Below are positions 3,632 to 50,853 of a DNA stretch of 64,000 nt, piece after piece; position 1 is the first letter of the stretch; each line of letters opens with the position of its first letter. This stretch comes from Amphiscolops sp. MND2022. Its lineage: Eukaryota. The stretch lies in NCBI GenBank assembly GCA_964187785.1, contig OZ076409.1:79114001-79178000 (forward strand), given 5' to 3'. A program made the position numbers and the translations under genes. Below the pieces are notes generated by a model that worked only from the letters and a program-made list of their open reading frames with translations, was not told where the DNA came from and made no database searches.

Positions 3632-4960
3632 AAATTACACTGCCAAAAGAAACGACTGAGTCCGTTGAAAATCCGTATGATCATTTAGGAGAATCCTTAT
3701 GATCATTTAGGAGAAGAAAACAAAGAAAAACTGAGTCCCGAGACATAAGATTACGCAAAAATACCACAAGAGCAAATAACATGAAATGTGTGTCATGCTC
3801 AACTCTAATAAGAGAGTTTGCGCGTTTTATTAGATATCAATTATTCAATTTATATCAATTAACTGGCCGGTGGTTCAAATTTGCGTTACCCAAATGTCAG
3901 TTACGCTTTTTTAGAAACAAAAGTGTTAATTAAAAAAAAACCGAAATGCTTTTCATCAGAAGTATCGTTGTATAAGTATACTGGCGTTGTATAAATCCTA
4001 AAAGTCGTACACGTTTAACTAGTAGTTTTGACATTACCGAAATCAATTCAAAACAGTAGCCTGAATATCATTATTTCGAAAATGCCCAAAACACTCGAAA
4101 CCTCCAAACGCGATTGCTTTTAAATTGATGAAAACAATCGCAAACCGAAGTTATGAAAATGTTTTAATTCAACAACAATCGGTCCCTTTTATACAAACGT
4201 TCTATGAAATCAGAGTTATTTGTACCGTCACCAAACCTTACAATTAGCAAAGCTACTTAGAAGTACCATAAGGCTCAGTATAACCGTTATAACATTTGGA
4301 TCTCATATTGGAATAGTGACCTACTTTCATTTGTTTGGGAAGACTTGGATGGGGGGTGTTGTTGGATAAGAAACAGTATTTATCTGAGGGAGGATAAGGC
4401 ACATGGTCCAAACTTCGTTTTTAGTTCAATAATTCAAGATCGGTATTCCATAAACTACTGTTTTCGGTTTGATAAAGTTTCAACTTCGTATAGACTAATT
4501 GTTACAACTTTTCTTGATGTTGCTCACGACAGGGATCAAAATAGATCCTTGTCAATACCCTGGCTCAAAATACCCAGACCAAAATAACAAGTTATCCAAT
4601 CATTCCGGTGACCGTGCTCACGACAGGGACCAAAATTAAAATTAGTTAGGCAACTATTACTAAGGGCTGCTTTGAAATTATTTTTTCTTAAAATAGGAAA
4701 CCCGTTGACAGATCAATCAATTGTTATGAATGTACTAATTAGAAGCTACAAGGTATTTTATTTGCACGTAAATGCGTGGATGAAACACACGTGTTCACGT
4801 GTGCATCTTGCTTTGAATGCAGTTTATACGTACTATGCACGGTAGAGCTTAGTAATGATAACTAATTATTTATTGAATCATTGTTTACTTTGACTGGTTT
4901 ACTATGCTGTGGTATGGATTGGAATTAAAACGAACACTGAGTTTTGAATGCATATAAACA

Positions 4961-25931: not shown

Positions 25932-28900
25932 CTAGTATCTGTATTCATCAGTAAAGTTGGGGGTGGGGTTAGGACGAAGGTTTTATCTTCCTCCCCTGGG
26001 GCTTTTATTGTCTACAATCACATCATCATTTTCATCATCTGGTACTTCGGGCACGATAGTATCTCTCCCTCCTGATGATTGTTGATCATCAGTCTGGTCA
26101 GTAAGGCGGTCCGGGCACGTTTGTTCGGTCATATCAACGTCGTTATTTTGGTGTGGCCCAGTGGACCCGAGGTCCACGTCAGTGAAAACTTCTCCTGGCG
26201 AGCTGTCAACATCCACGAGGTCATTAGAAGCGTCTGTGGCGTCTAGGTTCGTAGGAAATGTGGCTTTTTCGGCCGAATTGAGAAATTCTCCAAAGGTGGT
26301 TTCCCACGTAATAACGTACAAGTCGTCTTGCGGGATAACAATTTCGTCATCCTGTTGCAAGTTGCCTTCCGGTTAAATATCTTGTAGATCGGTGTTCGGT
26401 TCGTATTTACGCAATCTGATACGGTGTAGGATCTGTGTTTTATTGGAATTAAGTTTCCTGACAATGTAATTCTCATTCGGTAATACCTTTTCTACTATGT
26501 AGGGTCCAGTCCACCGGTATTCGCGAAACGGTATTTTTGATCCTTGGTGGTCAGCAATAGGTTGTAATATAAAACAATAGTCATTTAGTTTCAAAGGTGC
26601 TGCTTTTGCCTTGCGATCATAGTATTCCTTGTATTTCAAATAGGATTGCATGATGTTTTTCTTCGTGGAGTCCATCAGTATTTGTGTTCGTCTTTGAAAT
26701 TCATCTGCAAAATCTGTAGTCGGAAGGACCTTGGGGTTCGGATTAAGTCCCAATTTATGATCAGGAATATTATATGGAATACGTCCATGAAAAATTCTGG
26801 TTGGTTCGCAGCCCAGGGTGGCGTGATACGTCGTATTATAATTTAGGACAGCTAAAGGTAGATATTTATGCCATTGTCGCCTATAGTCCCCTGAGGCCAT
26901 TTTTAACTTTGTTTTGAGGCTGGCGTGTGTTCGCTCAAGTTTGCCAATGGTTTGTGGATGTTTTGTAGTCGCGCATTTCATTTGGATTCCCAAAATTTGA
27001 GCGATCTCAGCCACCAACTTGGACGTGAAGGCCGTACCTTTGTCTGTAATCAAGGTAGTGGGCAAATAGGTGTGCTTGGTCATTATATCAATGATGACTT
27101 TTGCCGTATTTATGGCCGAAGCGTCCGTGACTGGATAGGCAAAAAGATATCTTGAAAACACATCCATTGCAGTGATGATATTTTCGTATCCAGCTTTTGG
27201 TGGTAAGTTTGGTAACAAATCAATTTGCATTGCATCGTCTGGTCCTAGGTCCCATTCAGGCAAATTGAGGAGTTCAGGGGTAACGGATGAATTGGGAATT
27301 CGTTTGTCCTTGATACAAATTTCACATCCCTGAACCCATTTTTTGATAACTTTCGCAATTCCTGGGTAATAATATTTTTGTCGAATTTCGATAAGCATCT
27401 TGGATATGCCTGGGTGTTTAGTTGCTTTCCCATGTAAGGATTCAAGGAGTTCTGCGACTAAATGCTTTGGCAAGAACACCTGATTGTATTTAACTGACCC
27501 TGTTTCATCAAAATACTGCCTGGTGATGATTTCATCTGTAACGGACAGTCGGTCCATTTGGCGACAGTAATGTTGGTATCGATTGTCTTGCATTAGTATG
27601 GACTCTGAGTATTTTTCTTTGAGTATTTTGAGTCGTAGTTGTTGTAAAATAATGTCGTTGTTTTGTTCGACTGCTATGGAGTTTATGCTGGTTAGTTTTT
27701 GGATTGTGGAAAGTTTGTGGTATTGGCTTTTATGTGTTGTGAATTTTTCGAATGAGATATCTGGTAGTTGATGTGCTGTGTGGGCTCTAGCGTCCTTTTT
27801 GCGTTGTAGGATTTGTTCTTCCGTCTCGTCGTCGTCATCCGTGTAGAAAATTTGTTCTTCCCTCTGACACTCCCGCCGATTGGACATGTAGTTCAATCGG
27901 TGTTGTTGGAATATCTTCTCTTATCCTGAGGATCAATTTTTCTTTTGGAGAGATTTCGAGTCGGGACAAATAGTCTGCGGCAGTGTTGTTTTTGCCTGGT
28001 ATGTGAGCAATGGTGAAGTTGAACTGAATGACGTAGTCACATGCGTTCCATAGAGTTGGAGGGATGATTTTTGTTTGAAAAAATCTTGTGACTGATTTGT
28101 TGTCTGTAAGTATAATCACCGGTTTCGGGGTTCCCCAAAATATGTGTCCGAATTCCTTGAAGGCAAAGAAAATTGTCAGGAATTCCTTTGCGTAGATGGA
28201 CATTTTCAATTGGGTAGGACTAAAGGTCTTGGATCCGTAAGCTACTGGTGCGAAAGCTTTCCTCGTAGAGGTATATTTCTTGAGGGGATCATCTTCGATG
28301 AGAACCGCGTACCCTGCAGCCGAAAAACTAGCGTCGGTCATAAGGGCTATTTGTTTGTTCGGTAAAGGTTGTTTGAGTGCCAGTTCACAACATCGGTCAA
28401 GAGCCTTATTTATCTCGGTGAATTTCTCCAGGAGGTCCGGAGTAACCAGGACTTTTTCATCTTTTGTAAGCAATTTGAAAAACGGTGTTAGTTTTTCTGA
28501 CAGCCTTGGGATGTAGTTCCTGTAATAGTTTAAGAATCCCAAGTAGCGTTGAAGTGCTTTATTGGATTTTGGAAATTTGGTATTTTCCAGGAAATTTTGG
28601 ACCCGTGGTCTCTGCGGCTTCACTCCCGCAGGAGTGATGGTACGTCCCAGAAAATCAATTTCCGTTGCGCCAAAATGGCATTTATGCATCGTGAGCTTGA
28701 GACCGGCCTTTTGTATGCATTGGAATGTGGCCCTCAGGTTGTTGATGAGTTGTTCAGCATCGTTGGCAGCGATGCCAATATCATCGACGTATTGGGCACA
28801 TTGGTCTGCTTTGATGACTTTGTCTAAGTATTCGCGCATAAAGCTAGAGAAGGCCGATAGGGCTCTGCTGAGTCCCTGTGCCAATCTTCTGTACGCAAAG

Positions 28901-30971
28901 GTTCTGCTGGCGAAATTGAAAGCAAGCATTTCAATGGACCGTTGGTCCGCCATTTGTAGGCAATGGTATGCTTGGGAGCAGTCTAGCTTACAAAATAACT
29001 TCTTCCCGGCCATATGTTGGTCTGCATTGGTAAGCGTGCTCACTGGATGGTTGTTGTTGATATAATCATCCGAGATAAGATTGTTAATCTTGCGCAAATC
29101 GACTAGAAGTTGCAATTTACCATTGGGTTTTTTCTGGGCAAATATTGGGCTTGCATATTTGGAAAATGGGAGTGTTGTAATGATCCCATAACGATGTAGT
29201 AGTGCCAATTCTACAAGGATGTCCTCTTTGAGATTGATTGGCGTTGGCAAACTCTGACTATAAGCTGGGGAATCGTCTTTCGGCGTCAGTTTGACCTTGA
29301 AGTCTTCGTTCATGCCTATGTCAAATCGGTGTCTTGCAAATATGTCGTGAAATTCGACAAGTAAATCTTCTATGCGAGCTATTTCAGCTGGTTGTAGCAT
29401 AGAATCTGTCCAATCAAAATTGGACAAAAATTGTTGTCTGGACTCAGGGTCATCCTGAGGATTAAGTTGCTCTAATTCCTGAAGGTTGATGAGTTCTGAT
29501 TAAATCCGTTTCTGGATTGGTGTATGATGCTGAGGGTCCCCAGGGTCCTCTGGTGTTGGAAACCAGTAATTTTCCTTGAAGTCCTCAGGTTTATTAGACT
29601 TGATCAAGCTACTTGCATAGTAAGCAGCAGTTTCAGGATTGTCCTGCAAAAGGTGCCATGTGGTCACTGGGTCAATGGGTTTGACATATTTCATCTGTTC
29701 TGGTGTAAGGACAGTGAAATTAGCAACCTGTGTGCCTCTTTTGAGGGTATACGGACTGTCGGTGAAGTTGTTCAGATGAACCGAAACTTGACCATTGGTC
29801 AATGTGACTAGAGCAGCACAGAAAGCGATATCGCCATCATCTGTAAGCGTGTTGCTCGGTTGAAGGATCCCGGTAACCGTAGTGTCTTCGAACAGTTGTG
29901 ATGCCAGCTGGACCGATTGTCGGTCATTAGGTGGGATGGTTACATCCTCTCTAATGCAAATGAGTTCCATGACGTTAGTGTACTTGTGGTCGGCAGTTTT
30001 GAGCTGCATTGAGAAGAAAGGAAAATTTAGGACGCCTTGTCGCATGTCCAGAATGGTGTTATTCCTTTGAAGGAAGGAAAGACCAATCAATGGGCTAGTG
30101 AGCTTTTCCATGACTATGAATATCTCGTGGAATTCTATGTCGCCAACTTCAAACTTCAGCTCGACTGTGCTCTTCGGAGTCTCCAGCTGCCCATTAGCAA
30201 CCATAATTTGGAAGTTGGGAGCCGGGCCCTCTTTGACAATAGACTGAGGGGCTAGTAGTCGGATTTTACGTAGATCAGCTTCTGGGATTGCGCTAGATAG
30301 AGCTCCCGTGTCTACAAGGCCATCTAATGTTAGTTCGCCAAAATCCATCGGAAAATAGAGCATTCCTCGTTTGTATTTAAGGCCAAGATTGGTTGTCAAC
30401 GGTACATTGTCTGGTTCGCCAGTCCTCGTGATTAGAGTGTTCACGAAGCGCGCGGCAACTGCTGTAGCCAGAGAGACTTGTGGTCCCACACGGTGAAATT
30501 CGTTGTCAGGCCCATTGTGGGTCATTTGACATTTTGGCGGTGTGTCATTTTGCCATGGGTCAACTCGTGCTTGCGCAAGGACCACATTCAAGGCTTTGTC
30601 ATTGTCATAGGAATCTGGTTCTTTGACGTGACTCGGTTTGTTAAAATTACGGTAGAAGTATAGATGATGTTGATTGTAGCAATTAGCGTCCCAATAGGGG
30701 TCAAAACCATAATCAGGATCAGAGTAGTATGGGCTATAGTCATCAATGAGGGGTAAAAGCCGTATAGTAGTAGTATCGTGCTGTAGTCTGTTGGACATAG
30801 GGTCCAAAGTGGTGTGGGAGGTAGGTGGAGTCTTCATCTGCTGCTGCCAGTCAGCTGATGGTGTGTCTTTATGTGAGGTATAATTTTCAGTATAATAGAC
30901 GTTTAAGGGGTCTGATATTATGTATTGTCGAACACGGAGCTTTTCATTAAATTGGAGTCGTGGCGAATCTA
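25932..30971 (-). pseudogene. pol: Element A pol (protease, RT, RNase H, integrase)
   Basis: LVDTGA protease; YVDD RT; TDAS, TDN and ADYLSR RNase H; HHCC zinc finger, D-D-E core and GPY integrase. Stops at 29500, 26373 and 25983, and a frameshift at ~27865. Confidence 0.95.
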
Positions 30972-30978
30972 GTTTTTT
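30972..30978 (-). promoter_or_regulatory. -1 ribosomal frameshift heptamer A AAA AAC at the gag/pol junction (element A)
   Basis: gag ends CCA AAA AAC TAG. The -1 frame reads LDSPRLQFNE... without a stop into the pol ORF at 30837. Confidence 0.8.
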
Positions 30979-32077
30979 GGGTTTTTCAAAATGGAGGTCG
31001 GTTGTGTATTTTTTGCGTCGTCTTTGCTGGTGGACGTATGAGCGGCGGTAGTGTCCTCCAGTTTAAAGTTTTTGGGCTTGAGGTGGGCTCCGGCGCCTTT
31101 CCAACATCGTTCCGCCGGGTGGTTCGTTTTGTCGCAAGTTGGACATTTTGGATACTCTTTCTTGGTAACCTGCCCGTCATTGCGGCGTTGTTCCTCCTTT
31201 CGTTTAAGTTTTAGGCATTCATCCTTGACATGTCCGGGTTTTTTGCAATAGTTGCAGGTAATGTTTGGATCGATGCCAGAGGAAAGAAGGCCAGTTCCCG
31301 GTCGTGTTGCTGTAGGGGCAGTGGACATTGTTGGTACTGGAATGTCATCCCCCTCCTCAAGTCCATTGAGTTCAAGCTCACGTTCTAAATGGGTGACTAT
31401 CTCCTCGTATGTAGCGTTTTCAAGTCTAGCCATATTGACTGAGCGTTTCAGTTTTGGTGGCAATTTGGCATAAAGGAGACTGTCAATCATGGCCTGGGCG
31501 TTCTCGCCAAACGCTTTTTCAGCTCCTTGATTTAATTTCTCAAGGAAGTCTGGCAGTTTTATGGTGTTTGGGTCGAACACCAATCTGTGCCATTTGTGTT
31601 TGGCGGTCGCCTGGGACTCAGGTTTGACGTATTTCCGGCGAAATACTGCCAAAATGTCTTCCAAGGTCTGCCTGTTTGCCGTATTAATGTTGCGGAAGGT
31701 TTGTAACGCATTTTTGCGTAACAAGGAATGAAAATGGTTTATTTTCATTGTTTCAGTCATGTCAGGCTGCATTTTTATCATAGTGTGAAAGAGATCTTCG
31801 AAAAGTTCAAATTTCCCTGATTTGCCGTCAAACGTCAGTGTAGTCCTGCTGACTGGGCGTACCATCAGTGTTTGTGCTGATGGACGGTTATTCATGCCGA
31901 CCAATACTTCTGCTAGACGGTTGATGGGTCAGTGGAAGTAGTTGTTTTTGTAGTCTCGTGGACCGATGGTTCCGGGTCCTGTGGCTCTTCATTAGTGGAA
32001 TTTTGATGTTGCAGGGGTTCACGGGGATGCATGGGCCGTCCAGTGAGGAACTCAGGAACCATACGGGGGTTAGAGTT

Positions 32078-32091
32078 GGCTCCTGTCACCA
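32078..32091 (-). other. Primer-binding site of element A
   Basis: TGGTGACAGGAGCC directly after the 5' LTR end CGACA. The first 12 nt are identical in element B. Confidence 0.8.
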
Positions 32092-33802
32092 TGTCGTGAT
32101 TTTGTTCGTGTGCAAAAGATGCTACCGAACTTTCTCTAGACCTTAGTCTATTGCTTTCATGTGTATAACACATTTTGGGGCGATTTTTCCATGTTTTTAG
32201 CGGATTTTCTGCTCCTGAGTTCCATTGTAGCCCATTGGACCTTCGGTCCTCTTTGGTGAAATCTCCTTCCTTCGGGCTGGGATGTAGCCCGTTGGACCCC
32301 CGGTCCATTGTAGTAAAATTCGTTTTCCCCTGCGATTCCAGCATATATTGAATGGAAGGGAGTACAGTATCAGCTATTGCAGCTGATATTGCGTTTTGTA
32401 TTTGTGAATTTAAACTAGACTTAATTTCATTCAACCTCCTTGACATTTGGTTGGAAATTTCTTAATTGATCAATCTAGTGGTCTCTACAGTAACTTCGCT
32501 ATTCTCTCTACTATTAGTATTGAGTAAAGACCTAAAGTCTTCTCCTACTAGGTTTGGATTTTGGTGTAGTCTATTAGACCCTGAGTCCAAATTAAGTTCA
32601 CTTTCGCTTCGTTCTGCTCTTTCATCATCCCTATCATAACTTCCGAGCATTATATCAACATTCTCTACGTCGGACATGATGTCCAATTGCCTAGAACGCC
32701 TTTCTTTGGCTTTCTGTTTTCTAGTGGAAGGCATGGAGAAATCTGGTATTTTCAAATAGTCAATTGAAAACTATTTCAAACAACAGAACGTAGGCAAAAT
32801 ATTATAACAAATCAGTGATGCGAGTGTATTGCAAGTTGTATCGAGATCTATTGTTGTGTCCTTCGGACTGAAGGTCCCGGGTATATATACTTTGCACTGC
32901 ATGACACCAGTAATTTAGGCCGTCATGTTACTATTAATAGTTGATTCATTCCCGAAATAGACCCACGGGATGACGTCAATACTGCATCATTTTACATTTA
33001 TGGTTAAAAATAGCATCAAAGCCAGGTTGATAGGTTAGGCGGTCTCGCCTCAGGGTCTACTTATGAAGATTTTACAAGAATATGAGTGCATGTTTGAATG
33101 TTATGTAAAATACATGATCGTCTAAATATTACATGACATCCAGTCAAATAGACTGGTAATGTATTGATAAACAACACTAAATTGGATCTAAATTGCGTCT
33201 AAACACTTAATTCTATTTGTAAGTATTAATTTAAATCAAAAGCACTATGGCGGACCACTGGTCCATGCGTCTACAGCACTTAGTACAGCAGTTTAATGGT
33301 AACAGCAAACAATAATAGGACGGACCACCAGTCCGTGCGTCTACACTAAATGTACTTAAATACAGCGCTGTGATTGGTCAATGTATTGGATGACGCCGCG
33401 TACAGCAAGCTACAAGAAACGATCTTTTGAACTCGTTTCCTGTAACCTGCTTACTTGTGCGTTTCAATTCAATTATTAAATTACAGCACTGTTTATATTC
33501 TAACATTACAACAATTTGCCAATCTTTGACAAGTATTTCAACGCAGATAAAACTAATATTAAAACATATTAAAAGTGACTAGTAATCCGTTTAATTAATA
33601 CAAAAGTTTGTTGTAGCCAAATCGACTTAAGGTCGAATATGTGTGAAGTTAATTTACAATGCAACAGTAACATATATTGTTTGTAGGCGTTCGTACCAAT
33701 GGTCCATTGTTGATTAGATTGGTAATACTCCTGGTGGGGGGTTAAGAGCGCTATTTCCTGGTATCTGATAGAATTTTCCATCACAAGCGACAGCTTGCGA
33801 CA
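32092..33802 (-). repeat. 5' LTR of element A (1711 bp)
   Basis: Direct repeat of 17897-19606, followed by the PBS on the minus strand. Confidence 0.95.
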
Positions 33803-36205: not shown

Positions 36206-37631
36206 TGTCTATTCCATCAATCGCCTCCATTTCCATCTCCCATATAATTGTTTGGTGCTCAGAATTACTCGACTGATCTACAATAATGAAGCAATCCAAT
36301 TTGATTGGTTGGTAAAACGATCTCAGTTAAGCGGTCAACCAAATTTCAGCTCGAAATAATATTTCATTGATAATCCAGTTGTACAAAATAAGAAGGTTAA
36401 ACTTGAAGCGCCTACTGTGTGGTGACAAATCATTGCGCCGAAAAATGAAGTCAATCCATCGCGCCAAATTTAGATTTAAATCTTATGCGACATAAACTTG
36501 TGAAATTTCTTATCAGTGTAAAGTCCAGCAATCGGCGAACGAAAATTACAAACATTCGATGAAAAATTCGAAATATGCGATTCAAAACGGCCGATCTCGC
36601 AGATACCGAAAATCGTAAAAGAAGCAGAAAAACGCACAAAAACCACCCCCACCCAGCCCGAGAGAGAACACCCCGCCACAGAAGAATCCCCGAAATCGGT
36701 GCCATCGCCCTCGGAAGACGTCCCAGCTACCGGCGGAACCCGAAGAATGGCCCAAGGGATGAAGAAACTCAGAAGTTTGCATATTTTACATGTGCCACCT
36801 AGCAGGTCAAAGACTAGCTGACACTGACGCCTGATGTTTCCTCAGTCTGTTGTACCGTATTTGCGATTTTTGCAGATATTTGGTGATGTTTGACCCCTAT
36901 TTTTGTTATTTTAGACGTTATTCAACTAATTAAAATGTACTTTAGCTAAACCCCTGTGTTCGGACCTCGGACGTATGTAGAGTCGCAAGAACGTTAGGAA
37001 CCTTAGGATACGTTTTTACAGGCATGTGTGACGTGTCCGGACTTTGAGTGCACCGGCACGTCGCCACGGAGCTCTAACTGAGGATCCTCTTTTGACGTTT
37101 GAAAAAGTCCCTTTTAGGAGACCATTTCTGGATTAAGAATTAATGTCTAGGGCTGTAGTAAGACAACGATCGCCTGTTTAAGCACCCTAGACATTATCCC
37201 ACTTCTATGATGTACTCTGCTAGGTGGACGTTACACAGAGTTTAGTTTTATCTTGGTTGAATGTCTCCGCAGTCCTCCTTCCGGGCCTCTTCGCGCCTTT
37301 CCAGATTGGCCTTCGTCAAAACAAGTAGCTGGTCAACTAATGGCACGTCACTCCACTTCGTTTCGCACCTGCATTTAGGGCACTAGGAGTATGTGAACAT
37401 ACCTGATCACATTATGATAATTAGTTCGACCCTATGCAGAATACAAACTCAGTTATCTTAACTTTCTCCTGTTTTATGTTTCGACCATTTAGAAGAAATG
37501 CATAATTGTTTTTTTAGGGCGCGATTAGTAGCCTGCTAATTTCGGGCGCAAAGAAAGTTCGGTACGATGGGACTCCACTACTGAAATTTTCAAGAAACTA
37601 CTGTTGATGCGTGTGTGTGTGTGTGTGGAAT

Positions 37632-40600
37632 TTAGTTAGCGCCCAAAAGTGTTCTTTTGGCAAGCGCTATCGACAAGGCGGGCTCTTCAGACAGGAGTTC
37701 TAGGCGGGGTTCTGTTGTGCCGAAAAGTTCTTGGCGGCACGCTGCTGTAGATTGGCAGTTCATCCAGTGCTCCAAAGTTTGTGGCTCTTCTTGACATTTG
37801 GGGCAGTTGGGATCTACGTTTTCTTTCATGAGGTGGGAATAGGCTTTCAAATGGCGGCAGTGTCCAGCTCTTAATTGTGCAAGCAAGGTGGCGTCTTTTC
37901 GGTTGTCTATTTGTTCTTCATCTCTTTTTTCCGAGTATCCAGCGTAGGTCCGTTTTGTTCGGTGGTGCGACGGAGCGGGATCCCTGAAGGACCGTTTGAT
38001 ACATGATAGGGCGGCTTTCAGGCTGGTACTTTCGGGTTGTTCTGTTGTGAGTTTAGAACCGTTTTTTGCTTCTTCGTCAGCTATTTCATTTCCCTTCAGC
38101 TCGGAGTGTCCTGGTACCCACTGGACCCAGATCGTTTTTTCGCTTCTGTCCAAAAATTTCCTCAGTTCTTCGGTATCTCGGGTTTGTGAGTTCAGGGCTG
38201 TGCAGAGGGATTGGCTGTCTGTGCAAATGAGTATTTCTTTATCGTAGGGGTGGTGTTTTTCCAGGATTTCTAGGCACGACAGGAGGGCTGCCTTTTCTTC
38301 GTCGTAGGATGAAGTGATGATCCTGCCTCTTTTCCTGATTATCCTGATAACTTCTGGGTTGTAGGCACTACCTCTGGTGAAAATGGCTGCGTACCCTCCG
38401 TCTGTTGTGCCGGCAATGGCTGATCCATCTGTGTAGATAGTTAAGTTGCAATTGAACGAGTCAAGGTGAGATATAACTTCATTTAGAGTTACGTCTTTGT
38501 TTCGCCCGTTGACTGTGACGTTGGAGTGCCAATTGCTGGAGCTCAGCCATGGCGGGTGGTTCACTTGCACTGTTTGTCTTGGGTTCAGTATGGCTGTTGG
38601 AAGGGTTTTGTTGAGTTCCTCTGATTGCCTTCGCCAGCTGCTTCTTTTAAGTCTGTTTGGTGCTGGCCTGTACAGAATTTGGGTGCGTGGATGATCAGGT
38701 GGGTTTCTTGATGCTTTTTGGTATGATGAAGCTATGAGTCGGTTGCTGTGAGTGCGGTAGCTACTTATGCCACTTTCTATCTGCAGTGCCTCGATTGCAG
38801 TGGAGCTGCACTGTCCAGTTATGGCGCGGAGAGCTTTGTTCTGTGACCGCTCCAGTTTATCGAATTGTGTTTGACTCAGGTTAGGTTGCCATGCTGGTGC
38901 TGCGTAATCTAGGACACTTCTCTGGGTGGCAATGTATATTTTCCGAAGTGTCTTTTTCTGCCAACCCCAGTCACGGGTTGCTACAGCGCGTATTAAGTTC
39001 GTGCGTTTGGATACCTTTTGGGAGATTTCCTCAGCGTGGGGTGCGAAGGTGAGACCCCTGTCCATTTTAATCGCTAGGAACTTTGGAGTGGGGTTGAAGG
39101 GCATGACCTCATCATTCAGTCTCAATGTAGGTTTCCATCTGGCTTCAGTGGTCCCGGAGGCAAAGAAGGTGCCTTCGCATTTTGTTTGATTTAGGCTGAG
39201 CTTGAATTTTCTGCTCCATTCTGCCACGTGATCGATGGCTTTCTGGACTCTCTCTACGGCTTTTTCTTTGTTGTTGTCACATGACCATACTGAGAGGTCA
39301 TCTACGAAAAGGGCGTGTTCCGCGGGTAGGTTTTTCGTTACTTCGTCAATAAAAAGGAGAAACAGAAGGGGGGCTAGCACAGATCCTTGGGGAACGCCCT
39401 GTTTTATTTTGTGACTTCTACTCTTTGCTGAACCATATAACACTCTGGCTTGGCAGTTATTCAAGAAAGCGGCAATCCATCTGATGAATTTTGCTGGGAT
39501 TCCTTTCTCTGATAGTATGATCAGTAGACTCTCTCTCCATACTGTATCAAAGGCTTTTGAATAATCGAAGAGAGCCATGACTGTTCTCTTTGGCTTTTTT
39601 TTCTTGAAAACCATCGTCAATGGCTTGGGTCAGACGTGTTATTAGGTCTTCGCAGCATCGGTTTTTCCTGCCTCCGCACTGTGCATTGCTCAAGAGTCCG
39701 TTTGTTTCGACGATGTGGATGAGTCTGGTGGCAATCATTCTCTCCAATAATTTGACTAAGCATGAAGTGAGGCTGATAGGTCTGTATGAGGAAATTTCAG
39801 ATGCTGGTTTGCCCGTTTTTAGCAGGGGAATGATTGTGGCATTCTTCCATTCTTGTGGGCATACTCCTTGGTCCCAGGAAAGGTTGAACAGCGCTAACAG
39901 TTCTTCTCTTGCTTTCGGGCCAAAGGCTTTTATGAACGCGGGTGTTATTTCGTCGGGACCAGCTGCTCCATTTTTCCTCATGCTTCTGATCGCTTTGTTG
40001 AGTTCACTGGCTGAGAAGCTTTGTGTGCTGCTGTTGTCTACCGATGGGGCGTTCACGATCTTTTTTGAGAGTCTGTTTTCGTTACGTTCTTCCTTGTTAA
40101 AGGTCAATTTGCTCTGACGGGCATAATAAGCTGCGAAGGCGTCCGCTTTTTTGATGTTGCTGTGGAGGACGCGTTTGTTGACTGTCAGGGCCTCGTTTGG
40201 TTGTGAAGGTGGTGTTGTGTTGCCGATAGAATGGAAGACACGCCAAAGCTTGCTGGGGTCAGTGCTGAACTCCGTTTCTTCAATAAAAGATCTCCAGCTG
40301 CGTTGTCTTTCCGTCTCAATTTCTTGATGTACCTTTTTGCATGTTTCAATCCATTCTTGGCGGTGCGCACGTACCATCCTTCTTAGCTTGTTCCGCTGTT
40401 TGATTAGAGTTTTGATAGCCGGAGTTAGGTAGCTCTTTGTTTTCTTGCCTGGTTTTGTTCGGGGGACCGTTTGTTTTGCTGCGCTGATGACCGCCTCTTG
40501 GAAGTTCTTGATTCTCTTGATGGTGTTGTTTTCTGTACTATCTACCTTTTCTTCTAACAGTTCGCTAAAGGCAGATAGGTCAGCGTTTTTCTTCCATCTC

Positions 40601-42170
40601 GGTTGTCTCTCAAGGGGCTTCATTTTTTGCATTTACAGAGGAGTGTGGTTGTTGACGGCAAGTGGTCTGAGCCACCTATGTCTTCGTTTGTGGTCCACTG
40701 TATCCTGTTCAACCACTGCGATGGCGCCAGGAAGACGTCTGGCGTGCTCTCATTGCCGGTGGCTCGGTTGATTCTGGTTGCTGAGCCATCGTTGGCGCAG
40801 TATAAGTTGCTGTCCGATAGCCACTCTTCTATCCGTTCTCCTCTGCTATCTGGAGGTTGCTTTGGGTCCCACAAGGCTGAATGGCCATTCATATCACCAG
40901 CGATGAAACAGGATCTTGATGCTGGGATTTGATCCGTGTAGATGACTTCTTCACCATTGTCGCGGTTTGGGGCCATGTAGACGTTGCTAATTGTGAGCCA
41001 TTTTCTCTTGTCAATTCGGACTCTGAAGGAGATTGACTCAACAATACCAACAGTTTGTTTTCCCTTCGGTATCTCCGAGTATGGGATGCTGTGCTTGATT
41101 AAGCAGAGTAGTCCACCGCCATCCCCTTCTCTATCGTACCTAATGGGAGCGTAGCCTTCGAAAGTGGGCGTTTTGTTCTTTTGCTTGTACTTTGTTTCTT
41201 GAATCAGTGCTATATCGATTTGTTCTTTTTCAGCCTCTCGTTAAGCTCAGGCCATTTAGTAGACAAGCCGTCAGCGTTCCATTGGAGGATCTTTAATGAG
41301 CTTTTGACTTCTCCTTGGAAAGGTTGACTTGATTCGATGGCATCATCCAAGGTTGAGGTTGTGGATGGAACGGGGGCTGGAGGTGATGAGCACTTGTCGC
41401 ACTTCCATTCTTGTAGGCAGCAGAGGATTTCGATCTCGTCCCTGGTGTGACCCGACCTTGTGAGGCAAGACTTGTGGAAGGCGCCATCGCAGGAGGAGCA
41501 TACCAGAGGGGCTGTATTTTTTGCAATGGTCCTCTTGCATATGCTGCAGCTAGTGCGAACTTTTTTAGTTTCTGTTCGTCGCTGCAGTGAGGCAACCGTT
41601 CTCCCTGCGATTGTGAGTTTTGCGCTGGTTGAATGGGTTGGGCACATCCACTGTTCTTTACTGTATCTGCTGATTGTGCTGCAGTCTTGTTTCTTGTGGC
41701 AAGTTTGTTTGCAACTTTTGGCAGTGCATTGAAGGGCCGGCGTGCCTACTCTCAGGGGTTCGTTGCAGACTGAGCATTTGTCCCCTCTTTTCGATAGGTA
41801 CGTTGGGTCCGGGTCCTCCGGGTGTTCTCCATGTGCGTGGCATGTCCATTCTTGTGACCTGCTGTACCGCGAGAGACCACTGCATTTTTGTTGCTTGTGC
41901 GTGATGTTTCTGCAGAGCTTGCACTTGAAGTGTGGACGGTCTTCGCCAATTGGTTTTTTACATTTGTGGCACTCTGGGCCAGGGTTTAGTTCAATGTCTC
42001 CGGCCAGTACTAATAAGAGGGGAGCGTAGGCCGGTTTGGCACTCCCCTTCTTCAAAAACCCCGTTTGGTGCCAGTGTGAAGGTGAGCCTTGTCGATTTCC
42101 ACTGCTTGGCGTGTTCGTCTCCTTTTTGGGGAGTCTCTTGGTCGCCACGTTGAGGCCACGCCATTTGACC
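37632..42170 (-). pseudogene. LINE polyprotein: 2A motif, 3 PHD-like fingers, AP endonuclease, RT, RNase H, C-terminal CxxC...HxxxC; about three frameshifts
   Basis: APE: ILQWNADGL, GDMNGH, SDHLP. RT: QGSVLAP, FVDD. RNase H: YTDGS, TDSQS, WVPGH, GNEIAD. C-terminal CPKCQEEPQTLEHWMNC. Frameshifts near 41220, 40625 and 39605. Confidence 0.9.
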
Positions 42171-42173
42171 AAG
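42107..42173 (-). ncRNA. HDV-like self-cleaving ribozyme at the LINE 5' end
   Basis: CUUGGUC(P1) AAA UGGCGUG(P2) GCC(P3) UCAACGU(L3) GGC(P3') GACCAAG(P1') AGA CUCC-CCAAAAA-GGAG(P4) A CGAA(J4/2) CACGCCA(P2'). The first P1 base abuts the TSD. Confidence 0.88.
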
Positions 42174-42810
42174 ACTGTTGATGCAGAGGGAACTAATGCA
42201 CACTGCAACAAAATCGCATAAACTGCGAATCCATTTTTTTTCGTTGTAAACCTTACAGAACCCCTCTTTCAATAAATTAAATTGAGTTAAAATTGAGTTA
42301 AAATTTCTTTGAGTTGAATTGGAACATGACAAAAATTGGGGGAAAACACGACCGATACGTTTGTTTATTCATGCTTGACATAAGATGTAAAGTCTAGGCG
42401 TCCTAAACGTTACTTCTAAATCATCAAGTAATTCAATGAACTATCAACGTCAGTTAAATTTTGATGAGAAAAATCAACTTCTAGCAATGATTTTCCTTAT
42501 TCTTTATGGTTTGATCATGTAGCAAGCACTTTGATTTCAATCTCAGTTGGTGAATCCAAATGTTTCCATGTAGAAAATGACCGGAATTTTTGATAACAAA
42601 TTTATTCCACATATCGTTTGGTATCAAAAACATATGAAAGACCCAAAGTCATGATTGAAGAAAAAGGTCTATTAAAAAATTCTAACGAAAACTGAATACA
42701 TTTGGATGAGTCAAGAAGAACGTTGTCAATGTCAAGGTTACATTATTCACATTTCTAAGATTAAAATGTCTCATTTTCGTTTATCAATCATTCCAGGGGC
42801 TTCACAAACA

Positions 42811-45800
42811 TTATAAATAAGGAGTCTCTTGCTTGTTAGCATCTCCAACTTGATTATTTTTCTTTTTTCTTCGTCCCATAAAAAACAGGCCTATAGTCAT
42901 TCCAATCCACTGCAGGAACTCCAACACTGATAAAATACTCCACCCTAACCATAAACCCAGATTACCCCCAATAGTCCCGAACAAAGTAGACAAATTATAC
43001 TTGGGCGACTCTTTGATTCGCTGGTACACCAAAGTCTCGAAACTTATCTCAACTCGAGCAAAATTGTCTTCGACTCGCTCTTGCAGAATGCTCTTTGCCC
43101 ATTCGTCATTGTAAGCTTGGGACAATGCCGTGTTGATGAATTTCCTAACTTTACTTGAGTTTGATTTCTTCATCAGCGATATAAAGTGGGCCGTGTAAGC
43201 TGCTGAGGGCCATAACGCACTTGACAATGTTGACCTGTAAGATATGTCGGAACAAGAGTTTGGGCAACCACACGAACGTTGTCCTTCGTTGAACTCATCA
43301 AAAACCGAGGTTAAACAGTTGTAGTCAACATTATTCCATACGTCACAGTTGCTCTTAGCCTTTTCCTGAATATCGGAGTTATCGGTGAAATTCCAATCGA
43401 ACGTATCGGCACAGCCGCAGACTTCAGCCAGTGTCTTTTGGTAGCAAAGATATTTGCAAAACTCCAAAGTATACCGATATTTCTTGTAAATAGAATTAAG
43501 TTCCAAGAAATCGGGCCAGGTCTCGGCACAATCAGAAAAAGGGTCGCTCCGTCGTAAAACTGTTTGTTGACGAATGGAGATAGTAGTTGCAGAGCCAGCA
43601 TTAACTTGCATGCCTTTCGTCAGAAGAGGCGGGTACTCGTCCGAATTATGTAATACTACCCTGACACCCGTCTTGTGACCCATCACCCCTAAATATTCAT
43701 CAGCTTCCAAGAACAACGAAAGAGCCAGGCCATTTTCAGAACCAACTTTTGAAGTATACCTGGCCTCTCCTAGATACTGGGATTTCCCTTGGGCGTTGAT
43801 GACTGAGTTGAAACTGAAACAGTTTCCGTATGAAACGTGCTGAAACTTGTGAAACCAAGTTATGTCGCAAACTTCGCCGTCAAAAACGCACTGCACGATG
43901 AAATCTTCCTTCTGATGTCCATTTCCAACTAGCTCGTCTTGCGTGAATTTTGTAAACTTCCTGAAGTCAGAAAAGTCGGGCATTTTGGAGTTTTTATACA
44001 CTGAGTACCAGTCATACATATCAATGTCGTTGAACTGTGAGAATTCATGGCTGATTGGTGGTTGGGGCTGAGGTGAAGCTTGGTGGTTTTGATTCGGCTG
44101 TTCTTCAAAGTATTCGGTATAAGAGGGGGGTTCTGTGTTATAGTATTCTGACTCATAAGTTTCAGAGGTTCCTATAATATACAAAAGGTACTTTCTCGTG
44201 AACAAATATGCTTATAAACCAGTCAAAGTGCTGATCATTAGATTTAATTGATTTTTATTTAAGAAAAAAATCAATTGATTTCGAAATAAAAATTGAAACA
44301 TTACAAACAACATTTGCCTAACAAATTATCATGAATGACATTTTTTCAGTGTTGTAATTAGTTTCAATAGCATCACTACTGGGGGAAGAACTTTTTTACC
44401 CGTTGTAATGTTTTCCTCACTTTCACCTATTTATGTTTGAGACAACCTTCGATGGGTTTTCTAAAAACATCATTACATGGTTAATTCAAAACAAATTACC
44501 TTGATCCGGACGACCATTAGTGCCCTCACCCATCCCATCAGTTCCACCACCAACAAAATCGTAGTCACAAGAAGTCGACGAAGTTATTTCATACCCAGTG
44601 TTTTCTTGAATCTGATCCTCCGGTACTGCCTCATATGTGAAAGACCAGCCTCGGGTAGTAAGGGAAGCATCAGTTGAGAACCAAACTGTCAGTTTATTGC
44701 TTTGAGAAACAATATCTCCAAAATTACACATTTGTCCGCACATTCTCGCTGTTCCATTGAAAGTGAAGAAACTAAGAGCTTCATCAGAAGTTCCTTCTTG
44801 AATTGTCAATGCATCGCACCAGCAAAGATTCTCTTCGCACAGCTCTACCGCAAACATGTCGAAAACTATTTTTATTACGTGATTCTCTGCAGCTTCGATA
44901 AAATAATACTTGTCCAAGTTGTTCATGTAGGTGTTTGGGTAGTTCGGAGACGTCACTGTTTTCGGAATCAAGTCGGCTGTGAAGGTAAAATTACCAGAGT
45001 TTGAAGTACAACCGAATTCTTCCGACTCGTCGTATCCAGGTACTACGACACAGTCGCGGACTCCGTCGCAAACTGAAGCGCAAGTTTTTTCCTCTGGACA
45101 TTGAAGGTACGAGTCCAAACAATTATTGGTATAGTTGAAGCTCGGATACTCAGGGCATATATCTGGATTCTCGTCGGAACCATGCATACAATCGGTCCTT
45201 CCGTTGCAAACCCAGCTTCCTTGTATTGGGGAGGTTGAAAATATTTTGCACCAATGAATCAGGCAAATAAAAAAATAGAATGCTTCTTTTTGCCTGCATT
45301 TATCTACTAGAAACTTTTCATCATGATTCAGTTCAAATAAGCTTTGGAAGTTTTTAGGGTTCTTGTGATGTATTGAAGACGAAGTTTTGGATGAAACTGA
45401 AAAAGCTAAACTTTCACAACCCTAGAGGTAATACTTGCCATTCCCAAAGGAAAATAAAATATGCAGAACAAGAAGCTTTACAGATTATAGCAGACCAAGT
45501 CTGATGGTTCGTTACTGGAGAATTTTTACAGAAATTCGTTCAAAGATGGCGTTTCTCCGACACCTCAAATATAGAGCAGTGAAACATATTGACTGTCATT
45601 TTGGTTGGAAAAGTAAAATTTGGTATTCATAAAAATATTTTCAATATCCATGCCTGGGATCCAATTGTTATCATAGTCACATTGATACAGACCCAAGGAA
45701 GCAAGAGCTGCGTAGTTGCGATTTGATGGCGGGAGAATTTCTTGGTATACATAATCCGACAAAGACGCCAACTCATTGTATTTTGGAATCCTTGAAATGG

Positions 45801-46224
45801 AACTTTTTTTCACAATATTGTTATTACATATAGTGACTGCCGGAAACTCCAAAGAGTTTGACCCGGTTTCGATTGTGACTTCTACGTTGACAGGGTGAGA
45901 ATAGTAATCCTTAAAGGTCAAAACGGCTTGTAGGGTCAATATTGCTACAAAGAACAGGTAAAAAGATATCCATATCACAGAAATGAAAGCTGAATTACCC
46001 AAAATCTGAGGCATAGTGTTGCCGATGAAACTTTTCGTCATCATGGTTAGCTTCTCTGAAGTTCGCATCGTACTCAATGACTCATCGTGGTTTTGATGCT
46101 TCAAATTTGATTGCTTCATTTCCACACTACGCATATTAGATCCTGCCATATTGTCGGTCCACAAATTGGGCTTCACGAACTCTGTTGGTTCGGGTGGAGC
46201 AATCTTTGGAGAATTGGGAGACAT
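42811..46224 (-). CDS. DEG/ENaC (amiloride-sensitive channel) family protein with LDLa-LDLa-CUB in the ectodomain; exons 46224-45654, 45219-44500, 44171-42811 (883 aa)
   Basis: TM1 followed by FPAVTICNNN, YGNCFSFN, a Cys-rich thumb and TM2 GTIGGNLGLWLGWSILSVLEF. LDLa: CNGRTDCMHGSDE and CDGVRDC...DESEEFGC. CUB: TSPNYPNTY...CGQ...FSTDAS...GW. Exons sum to 2652 nt in frame with two phase-1 introns. Confidence 0.9.
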
Positions 46225-48019
46225 TCCGGCAAAATATTCAGTTATTTTTGAGCTCTAATAAGCAAGTCTCTAGGCTGCAAGAGTTTTAAGGTAATTTTGG
46301 TAATGTTTGAGAACCCGATGTTAAATAATTGAAGTTAATGATAAACCTGGGTCCAGATAATGGCGTTTGAATAATCCATATTTTTCTTTGAAAAAAATGA
46401 ATTCTGTTGTAGATTCTGTTTTGACGTCACTGATATTTTGTAACCAAGAACTGAGCAACAGGGCATTCCGGCTCTAGCATTTTTCAAAAAACTTCTAGTT
46501 TGAACCGTTCCAGTCTCTTTCCGTCAGCTGGTCAAAACGAAAAGAAACTTCAAAATCTGTAGACCAACCAAGTTATCAAAATATCGATCTAATTGAATCT
46601 TTAGACCAAGTTAACATTTTCGCCACATGGTATACTCTCTTCAAAATCCGAAACACAAATTACAGTGACTTAATTAACCTCAGCAAGGCCGAAAGTTGGA
46701 AATAACCGCTTCACGTCTAACTTCCATGCTCTGAGAAGATTCATACAAATTGCAGCAAACATTGTTACATCTGATAAATTAGCATTAAATGTGTTCCAAT
46801 TTACAAAGTAGCATTAAAGTTTCGAATTCTGAATGGTTCAAATGGAAATTTTCATGTCCGAAAAATAAAACTAGCAAGTGCTCAATGCGGATCATAAGAT
46901 CGACCATGCATGACACAAATGGAGCAAACTGTTAATGCCACGCATCTCCTCCGACCATGACTCGCACTATGCGTTTTTCCTTCATCCTCTCGCTTCAACA
47001 TGCCCAAGCAAACTTGATCAAATCTTCATATTTTTCAAGTTGGCAACACCGTATTTTGGAAAGCATGAATTTTGTAATTTTTTTTGCTAAAACATTTTAC
47101 CTTCATTCAAAGTTTTGGCAGTTCATTGCATAGAGTGATATCAAATATAAACATCGAATTGATTTCAATTGTTTAATTGTTCTTACTGTTTCCAAAAAAC
47201 TAAAAATTAGAAACACTTGCTCAAGTTTAAAAGCGAATAACAATTCTCAGAGAATTAAAAACTTCAAAATCTTAAATCATCATCGCAGATGCAAATTTGA
47301 GGATTGTAAACTTTAAGCTTGGAGAAACCGTAGCCTTGTATTTATTTTGCAATCAAATTCATTCCGAGCTTTTTATATCATTCCAATCTAATTTTTAGAA
47401 AAATGATAACATGAACGCATAAAGATAAATAGTGTTGACTAAATGAGATGCTCACCTTGCAACTTTTCTGGTTTTTCAAGAACCTTTTGAATATTTGACT
47501 GGAATGTAACAAACTGAGAAGAGTCAATAACGAAGAGTAAAGAAAAAAGTTTGAAAAATTGTTTTCAAGACCCTCACAGTGCAAAATACCTTGAAACTCT
47601 TGAGGATAATCTTGCATATTTCAGGAGCTTTTGGTAAGAATCTTGAGAAGATTTTTACCAAGAGCACCATCAATCTTCAAGATCTTGCTAAGAGTTTTAA
47701 AAAACGCCATCTTTTTTGACCAAAATGTAACGAAAGCAGTTTTTTGTATAGAAAAAACTCTTAGGAAACTCTTAGAATTACCAAGAATTGTGTCCGAAAA
47801 TGCTAGAAAATACAAAACCCAGACCGGAAAAAAAAGCAAGAGTATAACGATACTTGATTAAAATCTAGCCAATCGAAGAAAAAACAATAGCATCAAGTTT
47901 TCAGTTGTAAATTTTGAAGCCACATGATTTATAAGCACCGAAATATGAATCTAGGGAAACTCGTCGAAAAAAGATCGCCGAAAATTTTCCAGCGGAAAAC
48001 TCGTGGCAAGAACAGATAA

Positions 48020-48452
48020 TAATCTCTTTCGCATTTTTTAACATCCATTCTGTCGCGAAACATCAAAAAATTGAAGGGGGAGCTTTGGTGAATTTTATTT
48101 CGAAAAATAGTCTCACAATGCCGAAAAACGGAAAGAGGGGACCCTTTGGGATTTTTCAACATCCATTCTGTCGCATAACATCAAAAAATTGGAAGTTTTT
48201 TTCGATAAAAACTCTCATAATGCCAAAAAACGGAAAGGGGGGCCCTTTAGTCTTTCCCGGTATTGTATGTTACGCGCAAAAAGAGGAAAACTTTTTTGAT
48301 TCAGTTCGCTAGGCCAAATGATTCAATTTGGGACCATGAAATTTTGTAGAACTTTTAACAACTATTTTGGTCAGTTCGTGTGGATTGAAAACAAAATTAT
48401 AAATGCGTCACTATAATAGTCGCGTTTCACTTCATGAAGCGCTGACTAAAAA
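48020..48452 (+). mobile_element. Partial HINE-like repeat copy, flanked by TCGTCGAAAA/TTCGACGAG-rich repeat sequence
   Basis: GGGGACCCTTTGGG motifs and the end CTATAATAGTCG...AAGCGCTGACTAAAAA, as in copy 1. Confidence 0.5.
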
Positions 48453-49103
48453 ACTATATTGTGCCTAAAACTGAAAATTTCAAGCATTAATTAATGAAAA
48501 TTAATCCCTCCCTTTTAGCACTGGATAATCCGTGTGGGTAATTCGTAATTATTCGACGAGGTTGTACTCAATTATTATTCGACGAGTTAATTTTCGACCA
48601 GTTTTCCGCCCTTCAATTTCGACGATATGTTTTCGACGAGTTGCATTCGGCGAGTTGTTTTCGACGAGTTTTCCGCGTACCGCGAAATACAATTCAAATC
48701 ACTGACATGGGACCAAAAAAAGTCGGAAATTATATAAAACACTGCAATAAGGTCTAAATACACTTGGAATAAGATATAAAAAGTCAGGAATAAGATCTAA
48801 TAGCACTGCTACATCTAGAATCTCTACAAAAATATGCTCTTCTAAAAGAGACACAGTGGCTATCAAGAGACACAGTGGGACTGTGGCATTTTTCGTTGTC
48901 TGTTACAACAGAAAACTTCCAACGGAGAACCCTTCAGGGTAAACAACAACTTCTTCCTAACTGAAAATATCACAAAAACCCGATATTGTGGTTTGTTACG
49001 AAACATTTTTGTTCGAAAAAATCACACAATGCCGAACTTACCTAAAAGTGAAAACCTCCTTTATGATCACTATATCAATAAACTTAAAACATTATATTAC
49101 ACA

Positions 49104-50853
49104 TGTCATGAACATTACGGTGTGTTTTATCACCGTGTTCATTATTAAGAGTAGATTTAGATTTCGCGTTGTACTGAACTTCGGAGTAACTTTCCGGTCT
49201 CTCTCAGATCTCTCCCATCCCCGTCTAGTCTCCTGTCCTGAACCGGCCATAATAACGTTTTGAATTTGGGGCAAAACTTGGTTATTGATGGCGTCACTTA
49301 TGGCTCTCTGGATTTGAGAACTAACACTGTTCATCATCTCATCCATCTCCCTAGATATTCTAGAGTTCAGTTCACTCGATAACTTATTGATCTCAGCCTG
49401 AGAGTCTATACTCGCTGAATTTCGGTCATAACCGGCACTAGTCCCAGTTTCTGGATTTCTATGGTCAGAATGGAGATTCATTTCCTCATTTTCTAAGTTA
49501 TTACTTGCAACACTTTCTTGCCTTCTAATGGAAGTTCCATCGAGGCTTTCATCTCTCCTCATGTCACTGAAGTGGTTTTCACCTAACATTATGTCAAGGT
49601 TTTCAATGTCAGAGAGAATTTCTAATCCTCTAGATTTCCTTGCTTTCTTCTGCTTCCTTGTAGTAGGCATTAAGACTGAATCGGGTTGAAAACTTGACTT
49701 ATCAATTCCGGAAAATTAACAGTGTAACCGTTTGTATTATGAACGTCTTTATCAAAAGAGAGAAGCACAAAGTATGAGTCTTCCTGCAGGGGTATGGGTA
49801 TTTATACCCCTGAAAGTATGACACACACATTTTTACATATTTTGATCAAGACAAATCATAGAATTTTACAATCAACATAGGAAAATCCCCGACAACTACA
49901 TATTTCCGGGGGACATTTAAGGAATGGCATTCAGAGTCATCATTTTAAGTAGCAACTTCAAACAATTTATCGGTTAGACCTACTTCAAGTGTGATGTAAA
50001 CAAATACCACAGCCTGCATATTTTATGGCAATGTAAAATGAAGGCACGTGCCGGCACAAGTTTACTGCAAATTAGGCTGAAAACGGAATGTATTACTATG
50101 TGTGGAATTCTAATACTGCATCGATATTCACGAAAATACACTCGCATATCAGAGCCGGAATGGGCCCAAATCCATAACATGTACTGCGCATAGGAAAGAC
50201 ATGGTAAAAGGCCTTAACCGTCCCTTTATCCAAGTTAAAAGTATACAAACATCAAAACATCACAAACGTATTTATTTAGACTAAAAACATGCTTCTAATA
50301 ACTCGGCGTAAGTATTGATCCAATTAGGCAACAAAGGTATCATTATGCTCGAATTGGCCGAAGCCGTCCATTTGACTGGGGGACTGATATAAATTAGCAC
50401 CGCTTAGTCAATTGGCCATATCCGGCCATCATAAATAAAGCACTCATAATTAGCAAAAGGAGAGCTCTGATTGGCTAATAACTGTACTGAAAGTTACATC
50501 GCCGAGAAGGGACGTTTTCTTACTTGAACACGTTTCCTTCTCGCGATCAGCCTGCTTATTGTACGTTACCGCTTTGATTAATTTCAACACTCTATTTGCA
50601 ATACACCGAACTTCCTTTTACAAATCTCAAATCACAACCTGATTTGGATAGCTTCAAATCGTAATTTTAACAGACTAATATCACGAACAATTATATAAAA
50701 ATGCACTTGAATAAACAAAACGAATGTGATTAACTAGTAAATATAAGTTTCAGTAAGGGAAAGATTAAAACGTGGGTAGGGTACCTGGGACAATTTCTTG
50801 ATTTTCCGCTGACGTCGTTATTAATGTGCCGTCGCAGGCGGCAGGCTGCGACA
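49104..50853 (-). repeat. 3' LTR of element B (~1750 bp)
   Basis: The outer end TGTCATGAAC is confirmed by the copy at 63426. The inner end (TGCGACA, 50853) is inferred only by homology with element A, and the adjacent sequence is not a clear PPT. Confidence 0.7.

Follow-up and report, generated by a model that had tools for sequence, protein, structure and literature searches.

A stop-free leader, a predicted slip site and a hairpin between an HDV-like ribozyme fold and the 2A sequence of an Ingi-type LINE from Amphiscolops

The 5' end of a full-length Ingi-type LINE of Amphiscolops sp. MND2022 brings together the fold of an HDV-like ribozyme, a leader without stop triplets in any frame, a predicted slip site followed by a hairpin, and a 2A (StopGo) sequence. 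We studied it in a window of 64,000 nt, the whole stretch of contig OZ076409.1 that was analysed, in which the element lies on the minus strand and position 42173 is nt 1 of the ribozyme. The explanation that best covers all these features, and that we consider moderately probable from their sequence, is that the ribozyme is followed by a frame-open leader, that slip site and hairpin would funnel ribosomes into Pol, and that the 2A would trim off the leader peptide. The ribozyme by itself is a routine addition to what is known, and had already been described in a sequence-only reading of this DNA. The newer part is what lies between ribozyme and 2A, namely the stop-free leader, the slip site and the hairpin, all absent from that reading.

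The element spans 4,563 nt (37611-42173, minus strand) and contains a single ORF, which carries three frameshifts in this copy. It is flanked by an 11-bp target-site duplication, GCATCAACAGT, whose 5' copy (42184-42174) ends at ribozyme nt 1, as had been claimed, and whose 3' copy occupies 37610-37600. The ORF encodes, in this order, the 2A, Cys/His-rich fingers of PHD- or C1-like type (41213-41974, including the start of the next domain), an APE endonuclease (approximately 40623-41240), a reverse transcriptase (approximately 39074-39796, projected from copy L017 and split by a frameshift here) and RNase H (38055-38444). A (CA)n tail (37611-37627) lies 4 nt past the stop codon (37632-37634). 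In L017, APE, RT and RNase H all gave Pfam matches above cut-off in the single ORF. The same domain order has been described for L1Tc (PMC3185411), and Vingi elements are described without RNase H (PMC13708176). The element is Ingi-type by this architecture, which makes L1Tc/ingi the right comparison; our RT tree covered the loci of this analysis. Three Ingi traits occur together here: a 2A near the N-terminus, an 11-bp target duplication, and a 5' ribozyme fold.

A genome search returned at least 15 matches to the 5' end of the element and at least 40 to its 3' end. Seven other full-length copies, two of which (L017 and L021) have common flanks, are 99% identical to the copy in the window, and all seven begin with the heptamer CTTGGTC, the start that the sequence-only reading had expected of them. 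The duplication abuts nt 1 in six of seven independent young insertions, counting L017 and L021 once and including the window; the exception, L020, has one extra base in between, and L016 is ambiguous by one base. The ORF is broken in all eight full-length copies of the family, one to three times each. On the sense strand, target sites look like CAG or CAA repeats in the window's family, in its sister family B and in several metagenome relatives. The window's family has internally deleted derivatives in which the ribozyme is joined to the 3' end (L027:387-823, plus strand; L023; L026), the shortest of about 400 nt, like NARTc and RIME. The 5' flanks of L003, L007 and L009 show two independent insertions some 20 nt downstream of the same GC-rich repeat of about 45 nt. 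A young copy (L005:613-1509, minus strand) has been inserted in antisense at the border of a long open frame that encodes C2H2 zinc fingers.

The ribozyme fold comprises the first 67 nt (42107-42173, minus strand, the strand having been left unstated before), with the predicted cut immediately 5' of 42173. P1 (7 bp) pairs nt 1-7 (42167-42173) with 31-37 (42137-42143) and starts with a C-G pair; P2 (7 bp) pairs nt 11-17 (42157-42163) with 61-67 (42107-42113); P3 (3 bp) pairs nt 18-20 with 28-30 and encloses L3 (42144-42156 for both), which is UCAACGU at nt 21-27. A single pair, C22 (42152) with G39 (42135), makes P1.1. The P4 hairpin (42119-42133) has 4 bp (nt 41-44 with 52-55), and J4/2 is CGAA (42114-42117), with the predicted catalytic C57 at 42117. 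U21 and G26 are spaced like the U-G pair of HDV. The nested double pseudoknot of P1, P1.1, P2, P3 and P4 is thus complete between 42173 and 42107; the pairings are as first described, and the coordinates given for the fold proved exact. A strict descriptor of the fold matched once in the window and never in 200 dinucleotide shuffles searched on both strands. In the covariance-model search that had been proposed, the top Rfam match in 40000-50000 is an HDV family on the same bases (HDV-F-prausnitzii, RF02682, 42105-42173, minus strand, E 0.11), at 26.8 bits against a gathering score of 44, a shortfall that says nothing against the fold class because RF02682 models one bacterial variant. Nested minimum-free-energy folding is unexceptional (z -1.25), as expected of a pseudoknot. 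The initial C-G pair of P1, the one-pair P1.1 and a U at -1 that could lengthen P1 in this copy may slow cleavage; such an extension of P1 has been discussed for L1Tc (PMC3185411).

Comparison with relatives adds covariation to these pairings. Family B, about 65% identical to the window's family (family A), keeps P3, L3 and CGAA, has a much longer P4, and differs from family A by changes on both sides of one P1 pair and of four P2 pairs. Across seven sequences of the two families, 96.8% of the cells are paired and five pairs show double changes, against 36-47% paired when the partners are slid. Seven other folds retain C-G at both ends of P1, with one to four double changes each. Among 79 metagenome loci related in Pol, 18 reach a 2A, and six of these 18 have an HDV-like fold with C-G at both P1 ends and two to four double changes; taken singly, such folds score near background in a loose scan (33.9-37.4, for a shuffled 95th percentile of 31.9 and maximum of 37.6). 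The equivalent of C57 is kept in its CGAA context in family B and in four metagenome folds, and L3 differs in many relatives that retain the fold. The first interpretation is supported in the fold itself, in its position at the exact 5' end of the element, in the conservation of that end among other copies and in the covariation with a sister family; the predicted cleavage there has indirect support from the boundary of the duplication. As a separate case, an HDV-like fold also heads a LINE that has no 2A (L077:4632-4703, minus strand), where an AUG overlaps J4/2 and P2.

Judged by sequence and predicted fold, the ribozyme is a further member of the L1Tc/ingi kind, known from trypanosomes. The core had been likened to the 5' signature of these elements, a resemblance that may include the part upstream of +25. 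From +25 onwards it is borne out, by CGTG at +25 to +28 (42146-42149), where L1Tc has the same letters as a promoter element (DPE; PMC4748587) and which is a candidate promoter here, and by the 3' strand of P1, which a primer places at 31-37 in L1Tc too (PMC3185411). The likeness to Pr77 of L1Tc/ingi extends to an HDV-like fold starting at nt 1, a 7-bp P1 ending at nt 37, a 3-bp P3 and a single-pair P1.1 (PMC3185411, PMC4035085), and beyond it to target duplications of 11-12 bp, a single ORF with 2A, APE, RT and RNase H, and short internally deleted derivatives (PMC3185411, PMC4035085, PMC3383444, PMC4748587). The L1Tc ribozyme cuts at +1 in vitro (PMC3185411). The Amphiscolops element differs from L1Tc in its animal host, in a (CA)n rather than poly(A) tail, in the zinc fingers between 2A and APE, and in its CAG/CAA-like targets. 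HDV-like ribozymes of R2, RTE, R1, R4, LOA and Ingi are described as self-cleaving 5' ends with a proposed role in cap-independent translation (PMC5786205, PMC6765202). The suggestion of a new animal instance holds as to fold, 5'-end position and covariation, but adds only modestly to what is known: both Ingi and RTE have been listed before among clades with 5' ribozymes (PMC5786205), and animal Ingi ribozymes may have been listed earlier in Ruminski 2011.

The leader (42054-42173, minus strand, 120 nt) has no stop triplet in any of its three frames and a sole AUG (42162-42164), out of the Pol frame; families A and B have no in-frame AUG before the 2A. A number of observations show that the lack of stops is common among relatives. 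First, the leaders of 13 elements, whose 5' ends were set by the fold (eight), by copy comparison (one) or by eye (four), hold 11 stop triplets where dinucleotide shuffles lead one to expect 62.5 and, in 2000 rounds, never gave fewer than 42, a significance that the shuffles overstate because the elements are related; 11 of the 13 have none at all. Second, the antisense strand of the same leaders is at expectation (89 stops for 88.6). Third, a fixed window of 120 nt at 21 loci gives six stops for 48.3 expected. Fourth, TGA is the most depleted of the 64 triplets (0 for 29.7) and TAA the second, TGG and TGC being enriched in leaders that are otherwise T-poor and TA-poor (TA 58 for 141). The depletion includes the ribozyme itself: the three frames of the first 70 nt contain 0, 0 and 2 stops, for about seven expected in each, and the first 36 nt contain none for 9.5 expected. 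Off-frame stops reappear straight past the slip motif. AUGs are at chance level (29 for 25 expected) and spread over all frames.

Controls behave differently: an HDV-headed element without 2A has eight stops in 72 nt, and two 2A LINEs of another type have nine upstream stops each and no in-frame motif. None of 36 2A loci in the viral collection is preceded by 120 stop-free nt, and no relatives of Pol were found in that collection. In three decayed members of the window's family, one to three stops have arisen. Leader stops are present in L086, L095 and L103, and the copies of family F, one of the RTE-like families described below, have two stops in common, each of them in the +2 frame, so that entry in three frames is not universal. 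Two simpler arrangements were considered and rejected: a fixed upstream AUG frame, as in a simple uORF followed by a shift, since AUGs occur in all frames and are missing from some leaders; and a GUG start inside L3, which fits only families A and B.

In the Pol frame the predicted slip site (42053-42061, minus strand) reads GGG UUU UUG; in the +1 frame it is G_GGU_UUU, with UGA directly after, and in the +2 frame GG_GUU_UUU. G(G/U)(G/U)UUUU(U/C)G or a close variant was found at all of 21 loci (the window, families B and C, and the 18 metagenome loci), with an in-frame UUU codon in 20 of them, in which the motif is locked to the frame of 2A and Pol. It stands 59-64 nt ahead of the 2A glutamate in 17 of the 21, and three loci with longer spacing are still in frame. 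At position 8, 20 of 21 loci have a pyrimidine, whether the codon stands for Leu, Ser or Trp, which indicates that the constraint acts on the RNA. Perfect G_GGU_UUU occurs in eight of the 21 motifs, the window's included, and imperfect variants elsewhere, among them G_UGU_UUU (7/21), which is poor for a tandem -1 slip. The pre-shift frame is open, though no AUG is conserved in it. Among 120 homologous proteins listed, 25 have a 2A, and many share a G/V-F-L motif about 30 residues before NPGP, preceded by unrelated sequence.

A hairpin follows the slip site (42015-42052, minus strand, z -4.0), its stem of about 9 bp starting some 6 nt past the motif. In an alignment of 21 segments (19 motif loci and two from families E and F), eight of the nine pairs show double changes, in 47 cells, and covariation is 0.57, compared with 0.21 in shuffled alignments and at most 0.33 with slid partners. 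Hairpin z-scores are weak in families F and G, and z-scores across loci are biased in any case, because the U-run with the best downstream fold had been picked. Pairing of the U-rich motif with the hairpin loop into a pseudoknot, which looked possible in family B, was discarded as inconsistent by eye across loci. The 2A core, DIELNPGP, is at 41975-41998 (minus strand).

The -2 site of arteriviruses has the sequence RG_GUU_UUU. G_GGU_UUU is among the most shift-prone -1 heptamers, and viral -1/-2 signals share with the LINE a spacer, usually of 5-9 nt, and a 3' stem (PMC5009743). There are further parallels in cardioviruses, where a shift site neighbours StopGo, and in arteriviruses, which are known for -2 shifting at a site that depends on a viral protein (PMC5009743). 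In the LINE, unlike these viruses, the site precedes the 2A at the start of the ORF, and two frames would converge where in viruses one diverges. As to L1Tc, its primers imply stop triplets in the first 77 nt, and hence no stop-free leader, and the excerpts available describe no slip site or hairpin before its 2A.

A genome search with the 2A region revealed four further families (E-H), in which members sequenced far enough have APE and RT and gave no RNase H match. In our judgement they look RTE-like by motif; families E and F lie far from the Ingi-type RTs in the tree (100/100 support), from which L132 was left out as too short. They provide an independent set of leaders. In 14 of 15 copies of these four families, one having been left unscored for its damaged motif, there are 15 stops for 61.9 expected, and 67 for 68.6 on the antisense strand. 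Eleven of the 15 stops fall in the +2 frame, mostly in family F, whose motif, GGU UUU UCG, suits a -1 slip and not a -2 slip.

Other families show variants of this organisation. Vingi have been reported without 2A (PMC3708506), whereas the Vingi-like family C (L070-L073; a single ORF of 1,304 residues with no RNase H match) has the 2A, the slip site and the hairpin; at its 5' end a P1-like pairing can be drawn by eye, and the scan gave no full HDV fold. In family B (L037:868-6644, plus strand; L038), the first ORF consists of a 2A and a GDSL/SGNH esterase-like domain (Pfam E 0.008) and ends at a UGA kept in both copies. Beyond it, and still in that frame, come another 2A-like motif, the fingers, APE, RT and RNase H; the stretch just downstream of the conserved UGA is rich in GC, and stop read-through is possible. 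Family A resembles family B with the segment that separates the first 2A from the fingers deleted. In L245 (1602-3254, plus strand), an RTE-like element that has this cassette too, a single open frame covers a 2A, an esterase, a further two 2A motifs, fingers and APE. In L099 a second cassette with its 2A (4751-4900, plus strand) lies at the 3' end of the metagenome contig, behind a Pol ORF, and an internal duplication between slip site and 2A preserves the frame.

How could such a cassette work? The steps would be the following: 1) self-cleavage at C1 would release the element from a longer transcript and fix the 5' end that is copied, which we regard as very likely; 2) ribosomes would cross the leader in any frame, those in frame passing straight into Pol; 3) ribosomes in the +1 frame would slip by -1 on G_GGU_UUU and those in the +2 frame by -2 on GG_GUU_UUY, motif and hairpin being likely a frameshift signal for both; and 4) the 2A would release a variable leader peptide, so that Pol would always begin at the same proline. 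That the 2A yields a uniform Pol N-terminus whatever peptide precedes it seems a good bet, and the 2A of one animal Ingi element is highly active in vitro (PMC3708506). For the origin of the ribosomes we see two sources, each of which we would put somewhat below an even chance. One is an upstream ORF on the uncut transcript, made attractive by the avoidance of stops in the first 36 nt as well; a slow ribozyme, with its C1-G pair and single-pair P1.1, would suit such entry, and L1Tc cleavage is partial and context-dependent (PMC3185411). The other is initiation close to the 5' end, at AUG and near-cognate codons scattered there, where leaky initiation, at a capped or a 5'-OH end, would likewise use all frames.

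The alternative that survives best, which we nevertheless think unlikely, has the ribozyme work as in L1Tc and involves no frameshift: translation would start at a non-AUG codon at or beside the U-rich motif, the hairpin holding the ribosome in the manner of an IRES. Conservation of amino acids does begin at the motif, whose first codon is GUG in 7 of 21 loci; HDV-like ribozymes have been reported to aid cap-independent initiation (PMC6765202), and AUG-free IRESs in LINEs have been raised as a possibility (PMC3894237). Yet in 8 of 21 loci the first codon is GGG, and several loci have UCG, UGG or UUA as the third; no start codon is among these. A start at the motif also leaves the three-frame lack of stops upstream of it unexplained.

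More doubtful still is the view that the first 77 bases or so are mainly an internal promoter, with a DPE at +25 to +28, through which transcription sets the 5' end, and that an inherited fold cuts little, the RNA being capped and translated by leaky scanning. The position of CGTG matches that of the L1Tc DPE, the C1-G pair and the single-pair P1.1 suggest a slow ribozyme, and ribosomes on a capped RNA would meet an AUG at +10 and GUGs at +15 and +26, and so use all three frames; but a promoter does not need the double changes in P1 and P2, and L3 varies in many relatives that keep the fold. Both functions coexist in L1Tc (PMC3185411), and a promoter is thus more an addition to the ribozyme than an alternative. 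Least probable is that stop depletion and U-rich motif are by-products of base composition (the leaders being T-poor and TA-poor), of shared ancestry (the elements being related) or of the protein needs of the 30 residues before the 2A (which requires a suitable upstream context; PMC3708506), given that the shuffles preserve dinucleotides and antisense stops are at expectation, that TGA alone is missing with TGG and TGC enriched, that the pattern recurs on RT lineages split with full support, and that synonymous positions of the motif are fixed.

The preferred reading, in which ribosomes of all frames are merged into Pol, lends itself to a broader and more tentative proposal, which we rate as somewhat more likely wrong than right: LINEs that have given up their own start codon may hitchhike on translation. 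A portable 5' cassette would capture ribosomes from an ORF at the landing site, merge their frames and cut off the foreign peptide, and the ribozyme would later free the template; the cassette would have moved among Ingi-, Vingi- and RTE-like lineages, and CAG/CAA-type targeting would favour sense landings in coding DNA. Landing in host ORFs was not shown by two tests. The longest upstream open frame has a median of 95 nt in sense and 79 in antisense for a background of 125 (19 sites), and so gives no sign of landing in host ORFs. When stop-free stretches of the 5' flanks (137 of them, from 34 insertions) were searched with Pfam, credible domains came up in sense for five and in antisense for two, one of the five being the ENaC gene upstream of the LINE in the window; two more insertions matched a long ORF in sense, in a search otherwise swamped by self-matches. 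A sense bias of about seven to two among 34 sites is suggestive only.

Several strands of earlier work touch on this cassette. Ingi-1_AC of Aplysia and other 2A LINEs encode a single ORF with the 2A close to its N-terminus and, in some cases, a PHD domain behind the 2A (PMC3708506, PMC3894237), and Ingi elements are common in gastropods, while a cleaved 5' ribozyme can support RTE translation (PMC11203168, PMC8501958). The parts available of the 2A-LINE papers mention neither ribozyme nor frameshift and treat the 2A as a down-regulator (PMC3708506, PMC3894237). For LINE clades with HDV ribozymes, the available excerpts described neither a leader open in three frames nor a frameshift into Pol. 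A comparable G/U run, with a possible stem, is seen in the 5' UTR of an insect RTE, where no function is given to it (PMC5786205 supplement), and the passages on non-LTR elements in a review of frameshifting name HeT-A, TART and mammalian L1 only. In the literature covered, with Ruminski 2011 and Kojima 2011 outside it, we found no frameshift signal or three-frame open leader before a LINE 2A; the motif may already appear in supplements of the 2A papers or in Repbase entries.

Papers on the 2A name two open questions: by what route LINE RNAs without a cap or an AUG are translated, and why in some LINEs the 2A lies only 40-80 residues from the start (PMC3894237, PMC3708506). A cassette of 200 nt whose predictions are sharp brings both within reach of simple reporter assays. 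If the proposed reading is true, the cassette would be a naturally occurring example of two frames that lead to a single product, would join ribozyme, frameshift and StopGo in one module, and could serve, as a frame-independent entry cassette, in gene traps and retrotransposon-based insertion tools.

The ENaC/degenerin gene (42811-46224, minus strand) is apparently split, with two ASC halves and, between them, a CUB domain and short Cys-rich modules. This gene points the same way as the LINE, stops about 630 nt upstream of it and could provide a read-through transcript. Farther off are two gypsy-type LTR elements, related to each other and each with gag and pol ORFs, at 26373-32446 and 57371-63993, both on the minus strand.
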